Source of the DNA: Escherichia phage Qbeta
Sequence record: FJ483844.1
DNA length: 4,219 nt
Reading direction: 5' to 3' (one strand)
Part shown: piece by piece, positions 1-4,219 of the stretch
Layout: each line of letters begins with the position of its first letter
How positions within the stretch are numbered: the first letter of the stretch is position 1
Translations under genes and position numbers: made by a program
Notes under the pieces: generated by a model
Seen by the model: only the letters and a program-made list of their open reading frames with translations
The model's database searches: none
Told to the model about the DNA's origin: nothing

Positions 1-61
1 GGGGGACCCCCCTTAGGGGGTCTCCTCACACAGCAGTATTTCACTGAGTATAAGAGGACAT
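1..61 (+). other. 5-prime untranslated leader with G/C-rich terminal hairpin
   Basis: Seen in sequence: window begins GGGGGACCCCCCTTAGGGGG. C8-C12 can pair with G16-G20 around a TTA loop; G1-G5 with the C run is an alternative pairing. A 5-prime GGG start is characteristic of Qbeta-type genomes that Qbeta replicase copies. No ORF before position 62. Confidence 0.85.
52..58 (+). promoter_or_regulatory. Shine-Dalgarno-like ribosome binding site for the A2 cistron
   Basis: Seen in sequence: AAGAGGA at 52-58, with the GAGG core ending 4 nt before the ATG at 62-64. Confidence 0.65.
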
Positions 62-1324
62 ATGCCTAAATTACCGCGTGGTCTGCGTTTCGGAGCCGAT
101 AATGAAATTCTTAATGATTTTCAGGAGCTCTGGTTTCCAGATCTCTTTATCGAATCTTCCGACACGCACCCGTGGTACACACTGAAAGGTCGTGTGTTGA
201 ACGCTCATTTAGATGATCGTCTACCTAATGTAGGCGGTCGTCAAATAAGGCGTACTCCGCACCGTGCTACCGTCCCGATTGCCTCTTCAGGCCTTCGTCC
301 GGTAACAACCGTTCAGTATGATCCTACAGCACTGTCGTTCTTATTGAACGCCCGTGTTGATTGGGATTTCGGTGATGGTGATAGTGCGGACCTTGTCATT
401 AATGACTTTTTGTTCCGCACTTTCGCACCTAAGGAGTTCGATTTCTCGAACTCCTTGGCTCCTCGCTATACCCAGGCCTTCTCCGCTTTTAATGCCAAGT
501 ATGGCACTATGATCGGCGAAGGGCTCGAGACTATAAAATATCTCGGGCTTTTACTGCGCAGACTGCGTGAGGGTTTCCGTGCTGTTAAGCACGGCGATTT
601 ACGCGCTCTTCGTAGGGTTATCCAGTCTTACCACAAGGGTAAATGGAAACCGACTACTGCTGGTAATCTCTGGCTTGAATTTCGTTATGGCCTTATGCCC
701 CTCTTCTATGACATCAGAGATGTCATGTTAGATTGGCAGAATCGTCACGATAAGATTCAACGCCTCCTTCGGTTTTCTGTCGGTCATGGCGAGGATTATG
801 TTGTCGAATTTGACAACTTATATCCCGCCGTAGCTTACTTTAAACTGAAAGGTGAGATTACTCTCGAACGCCGTCATCGTCATGGTATATCTTACGCTAA
901 TCGCGAAGGATATGCTGTTTTCGATAACGGTTCCCTTCGGCCTGTGTCCGATTGGAAGGAGCTTGCCACCGCGTTCATCAATCCTCAAGAAGTTGCCTGG
1001 GAGTTAACTCCCTACAGCTTTGTTGTTGATTGGTTTTTGAACGTCGGTGACATACTCGCTCAACAAGGTCAACTATATCATAATATCGATATTGTAGACG
1101 GCTTCGACAGACGTGACATACGGTTCAAATCGTTTACCATAAAAGGTGAGCGAAATGGACAGCCTGTTAACGTTTCTGCGGACCTGTCTGCTGTTGATAC
1201 ATTTTATAGTCGACTCCATACGAGCAGTATTCCGTTCGCTACACTAGATCTCGATACTACCTTTAGTTCGTTTAAACACGTTCTCGATAGTATCTTTTTA
1301 TTAACCCAACGCATTAAGCGCTGA
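62..1324 (+). CDS. A2: Maturation protein A2 (420 aa); in Qbeta-type phages also the lysis effector that inhibits MurA
   Basis: ORF track 62..1324, ATG start, TGA stop at 1322-1324. N-terminus MPKLPRGLRFGADNEILNDFQELWFPD and overall length match what I recall of the Qbeta A2 protein; first cistron after the 5-prime leader, as in all ssRNA coliphages. The lysis function is established knowledge for Qbeta A2, not shown by the sequence. Confidence 0.95.
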   Translation: MPKLPRGLRFGADNEILNDFQELWFPDLFIESSDTHPWYTLKGRVLNAHLDDRLPNVGGRQIRRTPHRATVPIASSGLRPVTTVQYDPTALSFLLNARVDWDFGDGDSADLVINDFLFRTFAPKEFDFSNSLAPRYTQAFSAFNAKYGTMIGEGLETIKYLGLLLRRLREGFRAVKHGDLRALRRVIQSYHKGKWKPTTAGNLWLEFRYGLMPLFYDIRDVMLDWQNRHDKIQRLLRFSVGHGEDYVVEFDNLYPAVAYFKLKGEITLERRHRHGISYANREGYAVFDNGSLRPVSDWKELATAFINPQEVAWELTPYSFVVDWFLNVGDILAQQGQLYHNIDIVDGFDRRDIRFKSFTIKGERNGQPVNVSADLSAVDTFYSRLHTSSIPFATLDLDTTFSSFKHVLDSIFLLTQRIKR

Positions 1325-1345
1325 AATCTTTGGGTCAATTTGATC

Positions 1346-1747
1346 ATGGCAAAATTAGAGACTGTTACTTTAAGTAACATTGGGAAAGATGGACAAAAAA
1401 CTCTGAACCTCAACCCACGTGGGGTAAATCCCACCAACGGTGTTGCCTCGCTTTCAGAAGCGGGTGCAGTTCCTGCATTGGAGAAGCGTGTTACCATTTC
1501 GGTATCTCAGCCTTCTCGTAATCGTAAGAACTACAAGGTTCAGGTTAAAATCCAAAACCCAACCGCTTGTTCTGCAAACGGTTCTTGTGACCCATCCGTT
1601 ACTCGCCAGGCATATGCTGACGTGACTTTTTCGTTCACGCAGTATAGTACCGATGAGGAACGAGCTTTTGTTCGTACAGAGCTTGCTGCTCTGCTCGCTG
1701 ATCCTCTGCTGATCGATGCTATCGATCAGCTGAACCCAGCGTATTGA
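1346..1747 (+). CDS. cp: Major coat (capsid) protein, 133 codons including the initiator Met
   Basis: ATG at 1346-1348 (the track starts 2 codons earlier at a TTG, 1340). Product MAKLETVTL...IDAIDQLNPAY ends at TGA 1745-1747. Sequence is near-identical to Qbeta coat as recalled, with a few substitutions. Second cistron, as expected. Confidence 0.95.
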   Translation: MAKLETVTLSNIGKDGQKTLNLNPRGVNPTNGVASLSEAGAVPALEKRVTISVSQPSRNRKNYKVQVKIQNPTACSANGSCDPSVTRQAYADVTFSFTQYSTDEERAFVRTELAALLADPLLIDAIDQLNPAY

Positions 1748-2335
1748 ACGTTGCTCATTGCCGGTGGTGGCTCAGGGGAAAACCCCGATCCGGTTGATCC
1801 GGATCCACCGATTGATCCGCCGCCAGGGTCAGGTAGCTATACCTGTCCTTTCGCAATTTGGTCATTAGAGGAGGTTTATGAGCCTCCTACCAGTGACCGA
1901 CCGTGGCCTATCTATTATGCTGTCGAACTCCAACCTCGTGATTTTGATGTTGCCCTTGATGATCTCTTGGGTAACACTAAATGGCGAGACTGGGATTCAC
2001 GGCTTAGTTATACCACGTTCCGCGGTTGCCGTGGCAATGGTTATATTGACCTTGATGCGACTTATCTTGCTACTGACCAAGCGATGCTTGATCAGAAGTA
2101 CGATATTCGCACGGGCAAGAAACCCGGTGCCTTCGGTAACATCGAACAATTCATCTATCTTAAGTCGATAAATGCCTATTGTTCTCTTAGCGATATTGCG
2201 GCCTATCACGCCGATGGTGTGATAGTTGGCTTTTGGCGCGATCCATCTAGTGGTGGTGCCATACCGTTTGACTTCACAGAGTTTGATAAGACTAAATGTC
2301 CAATTCAAGCTGTGATAGTCGTTCCTCGTGCTTAG
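1346..2335 (+). CDS. A1: A1 read-through minor capsid protein (coat plus C-terminal extension, 329 aa) made by suppression of the coat UGA
   Basis: Seen in sequence: the frame stays open from the coat UGA (1745-1747) for 195 further codons to a tandem stop TAG-TAA (2333-2338). The extension begins TLLIAGGGSGENPDPVDPDPPIDPPPG, matching the Qbeta A1 read-through domain as recalled. UGA read-through by tRNA-Trp in Qbeta is established knowledge. Confidence 0.9.
1745..1747 (+). promoter_or_regulatory. Leaky UGA stop codon of the coat gene (programmed read-through site)
   Basis: TGA at 1745-1747 followed by A (context UGA-A), then an in-frame 195-codon extension with no intervening start or ribosome binding site. 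Established mechanism in Qbeta; efficiency cannot be judged from sequence. Confidence 0.85.
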
Positions 2336-2340
2336 TAACT

Positions 2341-2345
2341 AAGGA
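2341..2345 (+). promoter_or_regulatory. Shine-Dalgarno sequence of the replicase cistron
   Basis: Seen in sequence: AAGGA at 2341-2345, 8 nt upstream of the replicase ATG at 2354. It overlaps the upstream in-frame ATG at 2345, which argues against 2345 as the true start. Confidence 0.7.
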
Positions 2346-2349
2346 TGAA

Positions 2350-2369
2350 ATGCATGTCTAAGACAGCAT
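2350..2369 (+). promoter_or_regulatory. Coat-protein translational operator hairpin enclosing the replicase start codon
   Basis: Seen in sequence: ATGCATGTCTAAGACAGCAT folds into an 8-bp stem (A2350-T2369, T2351-A2368, G2352-C2367, C2353-G2366, T2355-A2365, G2356-C2364, T2357-A2363, C2358-G2362) with bulged A2354 and a 3-nt loop TAA (2359-2361). The replicase AUG (2354-2356) lies within the stem. This matches the established Qbeta operator architecture (8-bp stem, bulged A, 3-nt loop). Confidence 0.8.
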
Positions 2370-4123
2370 CCTCGCGTAACTCTCTCAGCGCACAATTGCG
2401 CCGAGCCGCGAACACAAGAATTGAGGTCGAAGGTAACCTCGCACTTTCCATTGCCAACGATTTAATGTTGGCTTATGGTCAATCGCCATTTAATTCCGAG
2501 TCCGAGTGTATTTCACTCGGTCCGAAATTCGACGAAACCCCGGACAACTTTAGGATAAATTATCTTAAAGCCGAGATCATGTCGAAGTATGACGATTTCA
2601 GCCTAGGTATTGATACCGAAGCTGCTGCATGGGAGAAGTTCCTAGCAGCAGAGGCTGAATGTGCTTTAACGAACGCTCGTCTCTATAGGCCTAACTACAG
2701 TGAGGATTTCAATTTCTCACTGGGCGAGTCATGTATTCACATGGCTCGTAGAAAAATAGTTAAGCTAATAGGAGACGCGCCGTCCGTTGAGGGTATGCTG
2801 CGTCACTGCCGTTTTTCCGGTGGTGCTACAACAACGAATAACCGTTCATACGGTCATCCGTCCTTCAAGTTTGCGCTTCCACAAGCGTGTACGCCTCGGG
2901 CTTTGAAGTATGTTCTGGCTCTTAGAGCCTCTACGCACTTCGATATCAGAGTTTCTGATATTAGCCCTTTTAATAAAGCAGTTACTGTACCAAAGAACAG
3001 TAAAACCGATCGCTGTATCGCTATCGAACCCGGTTGGAATATGTTTTTTCAACTAGGTATCGGTGGCATCTTACGCGACCGGCTGCGTTGCTGGGGTATC
3101 GATCTGAATGATCAGACGATAAACCAGCGTCGCGCTCACGAAGGCTCTGTTACTAATAACTTAGCAACAGTTGATCTCTCAGCGGCAAGCGATTCTATAT
3201 CTCTTGCTCTCTGCGAGCTCTTGTTGCCTCCAGGGTGGTTTGAAGTCCTTATGGACCTTCGATCACCTAAGGGGCGATTGCCTAACGGTAGTGTCGTTAC
3301 TTATGAGAAGATTTCTTCCATGGGTAACGGTTACACATTCGAACTCGAGTCGCTTATTTTTGCTTCTCTTGCTCGTTCCGTTTGTGAGATACTGGACTTA
3401 GACTCATCTGAGGTCACTGTCTACGGAGACGACATTATTTTGCCGTCCTGTGCAGTCCCTGCTCTTCAGGAAGTCTTCAAGTATGTTGGTTTTACTACCA
3501 ATACTAAAAAGACCTTTTCCGAAGGGCCGTTCAGAGAGTCGTGCGGTAAGCACTACTATTCTGGCGTAGATGTTACTCCCTTTTACATACGCCGCCGCAT
3601 AGTGAGTCCTGCCGATTTAATATTGGTTTTGAATAACCTATATCGGTGGGCCACGATTGACGGCGTATGGGATCCTAGGGCCCATTCCGTGTACCTCAAG
3701 TATCGTAAGTTGCTGCCTAAACAGCTGCAGCGTAATACTATACCTGATGGTTACGGTGATGGCGCCCTCGTCGGATCGGTCCTGATCAATCCATTCGCGA
3801 AAAACCGCGGGTGGATCCGGTATGTACCGGTGATCATTGACCACACAAGGGACCGAGAGCGCACTGAGCCGGGGTCATATCTCTATGATCTCTTCTCTCG
3901 CTGTTTCTCGGAAAGTAACGATGGGTTGCCCCTAAGGGGTCCGTCGAGTTGCGATTCTATATATCGGTTTGCCGTTGACCAACTTATATGTAAGAGCAAT
4001 CCTACAAAAGTAAGCAGATCTACTGGGAAATTTGATATACAGTATATCGCGTGCAGTAGCCGTGTTCTGGCACCCTACGGGGTTTTCCAGGGCACGAAGG
4101 TTATGCCTCTACACGAGGCATAA
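2354..4123 (+). CDS. rep: RNA-dependent RNA polymerase, replicase beta subunit (589 aa)
   Basis: ATG at 2354 (track starts 3 codons earlier at ATG 2345), stop TAA at 4121-4123. N-terminus MSKTASSRNSLSAQLRRAANTRIEVEG matches Qbeta replicase as recalled. Canonical RdRp catalytic YGDD motif encoded at 3422-3433; motif-A-like VDLSAASD upstream. Third cistron as expected. Confidence 0.95.
   Translation: MSKTASSRNSLSAQLRRAANTRIEVEGNLALSIANDLMLAYGQSPFNSESECISLGPKFDETPDNFRINYLKAEIMSKYDDFSLGIDTEAAAWEKFLAAEAECALTNARLYRPNYSEDFNFSLGESCIHMARRKIVKLIGDAPSVEGMLRHCRFSGGATTTNNRSYGHPSFKFALPQACTPRALKYVLALRASTHFDIRVSDISPFNKAVTVPKNSKTDRCIAIEPGWNMFFQLGIGGILRDRLRCWGIDLNDQTINQRRAHEGSVTNNLATVDLSAASDSISLALCELLLPPGWFEVLMDLRSPKGRLPNGSVVTYEKISSMGNGYTFELESLIFASLARSVCEILDLDSSEVTVYGDDIILPSCAVPALQEVFKYVGFTTNTKKTFSEGPFRESCGKHYYSGVDVTPFYIRRRIVSPADLILVLNNLYRWATIDGVWDPRAHSVYLKYRKLLPKQLQRNTIPDGYGDGALVGSVLINPFAKNRGWIRYVPVIIDHTRDRERTEPGSYLYDLFSRCFSESNDGLPLRGPSSCDSIYRFAVDQLICKSNPTKVSRSTGKFDIQYIACSSRVLAPYGVFQGTKVMPLHEA
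2975..2981 (+). other. Internal partner site of a candidate long-range pseudoknot with the 3-prime-terminal hairpin loop
   Basis: Seen in sequence: AAAGCAG (2975-2981) is the exact reverse complement of CTGCTTT (4197-4203) in the loop of the 3-prime-terminal hairpin. A possible eighth pair is U2974-G4204 (G-U). Qbeta has a known long-range pseudoknot between its 3-prime hairpin loop and a site roughly 1.2 kb upstream that is needed for replication. Confidence 0.65.
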
Positions 4124-4131
4124 CCTGGGAG

Positions 4132-4148
4132 GGCGCCACTATGGCGCC
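4132..4148 (+). other. 3-prime UTR hairpin (GGCGCC stem, ACTAT loop)
   Basis: Seen in sequence: GGCGCC (4132-4137) and GGCGCC (4143-4148) are mutually complementary (palindromic 6-mer) around a 5-nt loop. Confidence 0.6.
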
Positions 4149-4149
4149 T

Positions 4150-4173
4150 AATTGTGAATAAATTATCACAATT
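4150..4173 (+). other. 3-prime UTR hairpin (8-bp AATTGTGA/TCACAATT stem, A/U-rich 8-nt loop)
   Basis: Seen in sequence: AATTGTGA (4150-4157) pairs with TCACAATT (4166-4173); loop ATAAATTA (4158-4165). Confidence 0.6.
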
Positions 4174-4185
4174 ACTCTTTAGAGT

Positions 4186-4213
4186 GAGAGAGGGATCTGC
4201 TTTGCCCTCTCTC
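4186..4213 (+). other. 3-prime-terminal hairpin (9-bp GAGAGAGGG/CCCTCTCTC stem, 10-nt loop), followed by single-stranded CTCCCA tail
   Basis: Seen in sequence: GAGAGAGGG (4186-4194) pairs perfectly with CCCTCTCTC (4205-4213); loop ATCTGCTTTG (4195-4204) contains the 7 nt complementary to 2975-2981. Confidence 0.7.
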
Positions 4214-4219
4214 CTCCCA

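Follow-up and report, generated by a model that had tools for sequence, protein, structure and literature searches.

Genome organization and encoded proteins

The window, that is, the whole 4219-nt stretch of DNA that was analysed, carries genes for the A2 maturation protein, the coat protein with its A1 read-through extension, and the replicase beta subunit, together with RNA elements at its two ends and in and around the replicase gene (Table 1). Untranslated stretches amount to 61, 21, 18 and 96 nt only. The preliminary description had read the stretch as an entire Qbeta-type genome, terminus to terminus, with a G run at its start, CCCA at its end, and three plus-strand cistrons (maturation, coat with read-through, and replicase) filling the space between. 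Our analysis bore out each part of this reading. The sequence opens with GGGGGACCCC and closes with CCTCCCA, and both ends coincide with the ends of independent complete genomes.

Table 1. Coordinates of genes and RNA features in the 4219-nt genome
Feature	Position (nt)	Strand	Description
5' untranslated leader	1..61	+	terminal GGGGG and 11-bp hairpin 1-26
A2 maturation protein gene	62..1324	+	420 aa; Pfam Phage_mat-A, E 3.7e-137; PDB 5VLZ/5MNT A2, E ~1e-282
A2-coat intergenic spacer	1325..1345	+	21 nt; holds coat ribosome-binding region and extra T (1327)
Coat protein gene	1346..1747	+	133 codons; Pfam Levi_coat, E 4.1e-63; leaky UGA 1745-1747
A1 minor capsid protein	1346..2335	+	coat plus 195-codon extension (1748-2332); stop TAG 2333-2335
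Predicted coat-protein operator hairpin	2350..2369	+	8-bp stem, one bulged A, 3-nt loop; contains replicase AUG (2354)
Replicase beta subunit gene	2354..4123	+	589 aa; RNA-dependent RNA polymerase, YGDD motif seen in translation
Stretch of low synonymous variation in replicase gene	2549..2905	+	lowest in genome; mean synonymous pairwise difference 0.02-0.04 vs 0.14 genome-wide
AAAGCAG, candidate pseudoknot partner	2975..2981	+	exact complement of 3'-terminal hairpin loop 4197-4203 CUGCUUU
3' untranslated domain	4124..4219	+	four hairpins; UGGGAG (4126-4131) pairs with terminal CUCCCA; ends CCCA

Alignment against Qubevirus genomes had been set in advance as the check on this description. We observed an end-to-end, collinear alignment with complete Qubevirus durum (Qbeta) genomes, without rearrangement. 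Five complete Qbeta-subgroup genomes (4217-4221 nt) gave 100% coverage of positions 1-4219 at 92.2-93.4% nucleotide identity. All 81 matching records were Qbeta-group phages, and 33 of them covered at least 80% of the 4219 nt. Annotated relatives contain four CDS, whose coordinates equal those of this genome within 1 nt. Relative to the five complete genomes, the only indels were an extra T at 1327, an extra 5' G in comparison with AB971354, and a 3-nt insertion found in HL4-9 only.

Qubevirus durum is phage Qbeta (old name Allolevivirus, serogroup III) of the family Fiersviridae. In keeping with this species, the genome is linear, plus-strand and ~4.2 kb long, aligns at full length to the references, and has the gene order maturation (A2), coat, replicase on a single strand. 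The 4219 nt are almost certainly a cDNA version of the full plus-strand genome of an Escherichia phage Qbeta strain. It is very probably the record with proteins ACT66745-ACT66748; the serial order of these accessions, together with elimination among the group III strains listed in PMC6963950, points to FJ483844, probably strain BZ1.

The encoded proteins had been recognised as Qbeta A2, coat, A1 and replicase beta, and this assignment was confirmed by Pfam families, by matches to Qbeta PDB entries, and by 93-97% amino acid identity to the Qbeta-subgroup proteins. For A2, coat and replicase, identical sequences have already been deposited under Escherichia phage Qbeta (ACT66745.1, ACT66746.1 and ACT66748.1, respectively). 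These exact proteins are on record solely on one 4219-nt sequence, so nothing points to a larger replicon. The genome is already known: it is a textbook Qbeta strain that encodes the four standard proteins, carries the known RNA signals and contains nothing new. Purifying selection acts on every annotated frame (dN/dS 0.05-0.21).

A2 shared 94.3-95.7% amino acid identity with Qbeta-subgroup A2 proteins (dN/dS 0.06-0.10). The extra T in the spacer downstream of it was absent from the other Qbeta-subgroup genomes compared; because of this insertion, the coat gene starts one base later than in relatives. Past the TGA at 1745, the reading frame continues uninterrupted until the TAG at 2333, and the UGA-A context after coat was conserved in 14 of 14 genomes. 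The A1 extension matched the Pfam family Read-through (E 1.8e-95) and the A1 structures 3RLC/3RLK (E 1.4e-121), with dN/dS values of 0.07-0.16 that indicate purifying selection. An A1 protein with a read-through domain is characteristic of Qubevirus durum, and UGA suppression is predicted here.

The replicase matched Pfam RNA_replicase_B (E 1.7e-217) and, over its full length, PDB 3MMP/3AGP/4Q7J (1300 bits). Its start codon is ATG 2354; the mechanical ORF opens further upstream, at an in-frame ATG (2345) that is not the start. ICTV species practice uses at least 80% RdRp amino acid identity; we observed 94.6-96.8% identity to Qbeta-subgroup replicases (dN/dS 0.05-0.08).

Position within the Qbeta subgroup

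Nucleotide identity was highest to strain VK (93.4%), followed by BR12 (92.9%), and ranged from 92.7 to 91.7% for TW18, HL4-9 and Qbeta. Judged by sequence divergence, the genome is a separate third Qbeta-subgroup lineage that differs by ~7% each from the VK/BR12 lineage and the Qbeta/TW18/HL4-9 lineage. Near-equal identity to two sub-lineages could also be produced by a mosaic, and we considered a laboratory chimera or natural recombinant of Qbeta lineages instead of one natural lineage. A 300-nt window scan against seven references showed 86-97% identity all along the genome. No segment came near 99-100% identity to any reference, the nearest relative never switched sharply, and no recombination mosaic was found by this sliding-window comparison, with divergence even along the genome. 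Such a profile is that of a third lineage which diverged independently, and we regard a chimeric origin as very unlikely.

Strain VK (FJ483843.1) was closely similar in architecture: its length is 4218 nt, gene order and boundaries are identical, the termini are the same, and both intergenic spacers are identical except for the inserted T. Amino acid identity to VK was 94.5% for A2, 95.5% for coat, 95.9% for the read-through domain and 96.8% for replicase. The two genomes differ by ~280 substitutions, mostly synonymous (dS 0.15-0.29, dN 0.015-0.028), by the extra T, and at position 23, which is U here and A in VK.

Laboratory Qbeta (AB971354.1 Anc(P1); PDB 3MMP, 5VLZ, 1QBE, 3RLC) was also collinear over its full length, at 92.2% nucleotide identity, with 95.7% amino acid identity in A2 and 95.3% in replicase. 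The operator sequence within the hairpin is identical, and the 3' hairpin loop and its partner AAAGCAG are shared. In contrast, the present genome has five 5' G residues where AB971354.1 has four, and its 5' hairpin contains CCCCCCTTA where AB971354.1 has CCCCCTTTA. The most diverged part is the read-through domain (92.9% amino acid identity).

Whether the phage was Qbeta proper or a relative had been left to percent identity, and the values point to the Qbeta subgroup proper, outside the M11/MX1 and SP/FI/NL95 groups. M11 and MX1 (a second subgroup within Qubevirus durum) and SP (Qubevirus faecium) share the maturation gene, the coat gene with UGA read-through, the replicase gene, the termini (GGG...CCCA), and both the 3' loop and its upstream complement. 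However, nucleotide identity to M11 and MX1 was only ~71%, and replicase amino acid identity to SP was 56%; by these comparisons, the genome belongs to neither the M11/MX1 nor the SP subgroup.

Off-frame and minus-strand reading frames

We screened 17 off-frame and minus-strand ORFs of at least 40 aa using 13 relatives, 1000 synonymous-codon shuffles, synonymous constraint, own-frame dN/dS and Pfam. None of the 17 stood out as an extra overlapping gene. The earlier conclusions that the stretch shows no evidence of a novel system and that its minus strand should carry no genes both survived: the ORFs were no longer than those in shuffles, were broken in relatives, and lacked synonymous constraint, and the minus-strand claim withstood both the codon-shuffle and the conservation tests. 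The absence of a novel system, though negative, is the main useful result for this genome.

One candidate was a +1-frame ORF at 1878-2171 (97 aa, hydrophobic), overlapping the A1 read-through domain, which could be a very young, translated small membrane or lysis protein gene of VK, BR12 and this lineage. Among Qbeta-subgroup genomes, its ATG occurs only in these three, and 11 of the 12 genomes compared lack stops in this frame. The ATG is preceded by GAGGAGG, with GGAGG 3 nt upstream, and the product would have two hydrophobic stretches. However, its length is that expected by chance: the longest plus-strand off-frame ORF in shuffles was ~105 aa, and 57% of shuffles reached at least 97 aa. 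Qbeta, TW18, HL4-9 and the Fr phages carry ACG in place of the ATG, and stops interrupt the frame in TW18, M11 and MX1. Own-frame dN/dS was 2.2-3.9, compared to 0.06-0.16 when this stretch was read in the A1 frame, and A1 synonymous variation in the region (0.173) was above the genome mean (0.140). The GGAGG pairs with CCUCCU in a stable hairpin that has the ATG in its loop. In M11 and MX1 the stem is CAGC/GCUG, so what is conserved is the helix and not the Shine-Dalgarno-like sequence. The hydrophobicity arises because 45% of A1 third positions, which are the second positions of the +1 frame, are T. No Pfam match was obtained. These data make a translated gene in this frame highly improbable.

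A minus-strand gene is the least credible alternative. The 103-aa ORF 1997-2308 and the 97-aa ORF 1204-1497 are the longest non-annotated ORFs, and the former is stop-free in most Qbeta-subgroup genomes and has a Peptidase_A2B match in Pfam (E 0.007), but that match lies below the curated threshold (16.4 bits vs a cut-off of 21.2), 54% of codon shuffles yield at least 103 aa, ORF 1997-2308 has a TTG start and stops in M11, MX1 and GIII_C, and ORF 1204-1497 is interrupted by 2-6 stops in each of the other genomes and arises here only because of the 1-nt insertion and local changes. Translation of levivirus minus strands is not known to occur.

Qbeta A2 binds the pilus and delivers the genome, and is also the lysis protein, acting through MurA inhibition. 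No conserved or constrained off-frame ORF that might be a separate lysis gene was found by conservation, shuffles, synonymous variation or dN/dS. A 95.7% identity to Qbeta A2 suggests that lysis would be carried out by A2, as in Qubevirus durum generally, which has no separate lysis gene.

RNA elements and predicted life cycle

The 5' hairpin, the operator hairpin and the 3' domain each showed the expected fold at the homologous position. The 5' leader (MFE -24.1 kcal/mol, z -2.47) matched the corresponding termini of VK, BR12, TW18, HL4-9 and Qbeta in alignment, at 93-98% identity, and the complement of its hairpin is the 3' end of the minus strand. The 3' domain (MFE -47.4 kcal/mol, z -6.75), which aligned to the 3' ends of the seven genomes reaching the terminus, folded more stably than shuffled sequences (0 of 200 folded as well). 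The 5' GGG... and ...CCCA 3' ends and the structured 3' domain are as in Qubevirus durum. So is the operator hairpin, whose fold (2345-2370; -6.4 kcal/mol) accounts for 80% of the ensemble. Across Qbeta-subgroup genomes this sequence does not vary, except for a single substitution in one laboratory isolate. From established Qbeta knowledge, we take this hairpin to be the translational repressor site; the coat-operator complex 4L8H falls in the cluster of the coat protein.

A search of both strands against Rfam at E up to 1 found no family, and Rfam seems to hold no model for these Qbeta elements. The RNA elements were therefore identified by position, folding and alignment and not by a curated model.

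Minus-strand initiation in Qbeta needs a long-range pseudoknot with the 3' hairpin loop. The AAAGCAG at 2975-2981 was invariant in 14 of 14 genomes, including M11 and MX1, while nearby synonymous sites vary. This segment and loop 4197-4203 are candidates for the exact pairing partners of that pseudoknot. We rejected a 9-nt loop complement at 4012-4020 as a second partner; it is not conserved in M11/MX1 and maps to the part of the genome where synonymous variation peaks.

We observed directly which genes are present, their order and frames, the families they belong to, the termini, the hairpins and complementary segments of the RNA, and the purifying selection that acts on all four frames, and we infer all biochemical steps for this strain from its >92% identity to experimentally studied Qbeta. 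The RNA would serve as both mRNA and genome. A2 would bind the F pilus, deliver the RNA, and later cause lysis by blocking MurA. Coat would be translated efficiently, with occasional UGA read-through giving the minor capsid protein A1, and coat dimers on the hairpin over the replicase start would repress replicase translation. In Qbeta, replicase beta acts as one complex together with EF-Tu, EF-Ts and S1 of the host. Identity to the proteins in the solved complexes 3AGP, 4Q7J and 5VLZ suggests an F-piliated E. coli host and the same EF-Tu/EF-Ts/S1 holoenzyme here. The beta subunit would recruit these host factors and recognise internal sites, and minus-strand synthesis would begin at the 3' CCC, brought near by the long-range pairing.

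The significance of the genome is small, but a third Qbeta-subgroup lineage adds some comparative power. In position, the synonymous minimum of the replicase gene coincides with the Qbeta M-site, an internal replicase/S1 binding region at nt 2545-2867 (PMC4176380). Both this drop in synonymous variation and the invariant partner of the 3' loop agree with predictions of published RNA-structure work. Across lineages, synonymous variation also falls at the 3' end of the replicase gene.

Genome layout and relatives

We observed that the window begins with GGGGGACCCCCC and ends with CTCCTCCCA. ORFs were listed mechanically, giving three long frames, all on the plus strand (see table). The replicase ORF listed in this way begins at 2345, three codons upstream of the ATG. 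Untranslated stretches amount to just 61, 21, 18 and 96 nt. The preliminary description, which had placed maturation, coat (with read-through) and replicase cistrons between the termini of an entire Qbeta-type genome, was accurate in this layout.

Reading frames in the window, with Pfam family matches
Feature	Position	Strand	Length	Remark	Pfam family (E value)
A2	62-1324	+	420 aa		Phage_mat-A (3.7e-137)
Coat	1346-1747	+	133 codons	TGA stop	Levi_coat (4.1e-63)
Read-through extension	past coat TGA to TAG at 2333-2335	+		in frame with coat	Read-through (1.8e-95)
Replicase	2354-4123	+	589 aa	counted from ATG 2354	RNA_replicase_B (1.7e-217)
Non-annotated ORF	1997-2308	-	103 aa	longest non-annotated
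Non-annotated ORF	1878-2171	+	97 aa
Non-annotated ORF	1204-1497	-	97 aa

Megablast against 50,697 phage records gave 81 matches, all to Qbeta-group phages (81/81). Five complete genomes spanned the window from first to last base: VK (FJ483843, 93.4% nucleotide identity), BR12 (FJ483842, 92.9%), TW18 (FJ483840, 92.7%), HL4-9 (FJ483841, 92.3%) and laboratory Qbeta, Anc(P1) (AB971354, 92.2%). The full-length collinearity proposed as a check on the Qbeta assignment was thus found, at 92.2-93.4%. CDS coordinates annotated in these Qbeta-subgroup genomes agree with the window within 1 nt. In the multiple alignment, the window has one more 5' G than AB971354, and a 3-nt insertion occurs in HL4-9 only. 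Identity to M11 and MX1 was ~71%; SP has the same architecture, with a replicase identity of 56%.

The pairwise matrix placed the window ~7% from the VK/BR12 pair and ~7% from the Qbeta/TW18/HL4-9/Fr-phage cluster. A scan in 300-nt windows showed even divergence from all references (86-97% identity throughout) and no mosaic, and a recombinant origin was rejected. The window is an independent third lineage within the Qbeta subgroup. According to PMC6963950, group III in this sequencing series comprises Qbeta, BR12, BZ1, VK, TW18, HL4-9, M11 and MX1. Every strain except BZ1 is represented among the matches, so by elimination the window is most probably BZ1.

Proteins and their expected roles

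The replicase, which contains the polymerase motif YGDD, matched Qbeta structures 3MMP, 3AGP and 4Q7J over its full length, as did A2 with 5VLZ and 5MNT and the A1 domain with 3RLC. Together with the Pfam families, these matches bear out the earlier naming of the proteins as Qbeta A2, coat, A1 and replicase beta subunit. All four frames had a dN/dS of 0.05-0.21 (window compared to VK, TW18 and Qbeta). Because its dN/dS falls in this range, the read-through extension is translated, selected sequence. The exact A2, coat and replicase sequences are already in NCBI (ACT66745.1, ACT66746.1 and ACT66748.1), all named as Escherichia phage Qbeta proteins; the serials from ACT66745 onward come straight after ACT66741-44 of FJ483843, implying record FJ483844. 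The window's genome, like its species, is already known.

Because the window shares >92% nucleotide and 93-97% protein identity with Qbeta, which has been dissected experimentally, the genome is expected to function in the same way. A2 would attach to the pilus, deliver the RNA and bring about lysis by acting on MurA. Coat would form the capsid and act as a translational repressor at the operator hairpin, and UGA read-through would yield A1. The beta subunit would join EF-Tu, EF-Ts and S1, with internal sites and long-range pairing directing the replicase to the 3' CCC. These biochemical steps are expected by homology to Qbeta, and the sequence features were seen directly in the window.

The 90% protein cluster holding the replicase also includes many bacterial EF-Ts proteins. 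This is a database clustering artefact, not biology, and probably arises through the EF-Ts-EF-Tu-replicase fusion chain in 3AGP. The public record of one relative (LC710219.1, 1335-1736) wrongly annotates the coat cistron as 'lysis protein A2' and calls the read-through cistron 'capsid protein A1', an error with no bearing on the window. The proline-rich linker opening the read-through extension (1789-1800) is an indel hot spot in the alignment with relatives L004, L008, L012 and L013 (the last being LC710219.1). HL4-9 carries 3 extra nt there, GIII_C 6, and FrMerlot and FrHibiscus 9; the window, Qbeta, VK and BR12 have the short form.

Candidate additional genes

We traced all 17 non-annotated ORFs of at least 40 aa in 13 relatives, and generated a null model of 1000 shuffles with synonymous codons permuted inside each gene. 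The longest off-frame ORF averaged 122 ± 27 aa in the shuffles and reached at least 103 aa in 75% of them, so the observed off-frame ORFs are, if anything, short. The 97-aa minus-strand ORF was rejected as a gene, with 2-6 stops in each of the other genomes. Also rejected was the 103-aa ORF, whose start codon is TTG and whose frame is broken in M11, MX1 and GIII_C; its sole family match fell under the Pfam threshold. With minus-strand ORFs broken in relatives and within the shuffle range in length, the expectation of no minus-strand genes held. Likewise, none of the 17 ORFs gave a sign of the novel system that the preliminary description had doubted.

Only the plus-strand ORF of 97 aa, which lies in the +1 frame within the A1 read-through domain, had some appeal as a gene: its ATG follows GAGGAGG, its product is hydrophobic, and its frame is open in most Qbeta-subgroup genomes. 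However, within the subgroup the ATG is limited to the window, VK and BR12; Qbeta, TW18, HL4-9 and the Fr phages have ACG in its place, and the frame is interrupted in TW18, M11 and MX1. Its own-frame dN/dS was 2.2-3.9, compared to 0.06-0.16 for those bases read in the A1 frame, and A1 synonymous variation across it (0.173) exceeds the average. The product is hydrophobic because A1 third positions, which are its second positions, are 45% T. The GGAGG before the ATG pairs with CCUCCU in a predicted hairpin whose loop holds the ATG, and M11 and MX1 have CAGC/GCUG in place of this GGAGG/CCUCCU stem. The tests of length, conservation, dN/dS and synonymous constraint each indicate a shadow ORF that arose by chance, and we consider a real gene here extremely improbable.

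The predicted hairpin itself (1869-1889, AGGAGG-UUUAUGAG-CCUCCU) is stable at -11.5 kcal/mol. The change to CAGC/GCUG in M11 and MX1 is compensatory, suggesting that an RNA helix is conserved here.

RNA elements

Synonymous variation among nine Qbeta-subgroup lineages dropped most strongly at 2549-2905 and 4040-4114 (0.02-0.04 vs 0.14 on average over the genome). Of these stretches, 2549-2905 coincides with the published Qbeta M-site, nt 2545-2867 (PMC4176380), and 4040-4114, at the replicase gene's 3' end, is probably part of the 3' structural domain.

The replicase start lies inside a predicted hairpin (2350-2369), identical in sequence in Qbeta, whose 8-bp stem carries a single bulged A and is capped by a 3-nt loop. 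Its shape is that of the known Qbeta coat-protein operator. The coat-operator complex 4L8H falls in the protein cluster of the window's coat. An Rfam search of the window matched no family.

The 96-nt 3' region is predicted to form four hairpins, closed by UGGGAG (4126-4131) and the terminal CUCCCA. This domain had a folding energy of -47.4 kcal/mol (z -6.75), and 0/200 shuffles folded equally well. The last hairpin loop, CUGCUUU (4197-4203), has an exact complement and candidate long-range partner, AAAGCAG, at 2975-2981, which is invariant in 14/14 genomes including M11 and MX1, while neighbouring synonymous sites vary. Overall, the initial observation was confirmed, and the results support its interpretation as a Qbeta-type genome in which nothing points to a novel system.

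A second perfect complement of the 3'-terminal hairpin loop (GAUCUGCUU, 4194-4202), 9 nt long, is AAGCAGAUC at 4012-4020, ~180 nt upstream inside the replicase gene. Differences in other Qbeta-subgroup strains yield G-U pairs with the loop. This complement is probably fortuitous, because M11 and MX1 lack it and synonymous variation there is high; it could compete with 2975-2981 for the loop.

An extra T at 1327 in the A2-coat spacer (GAAATCTTTGGG vs GAAACTTTGGG in 11/11 other Qbeta-subgroup genomes) makes the spacer 21 nt, as in M11 and MX1, and moves the coat gene and all later positions one base along. Either natural polymorphism in the coat ribosome-binding/S-site region or an error made in sequencing the deposited record may account for it.

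At the 5' terminus, nucleotides 1-26 are predicted to form an 11-bp hairpin (-24.1 kcal/mol). Position 23 is U in the window and A in every other Qbeta-subgroup genome. With U23, a G-U pair replaces a G-A mismatch and the predicted helix runs without interruption. It is conceivable that U23 alters how accessible the 3' end of the minus strand is.
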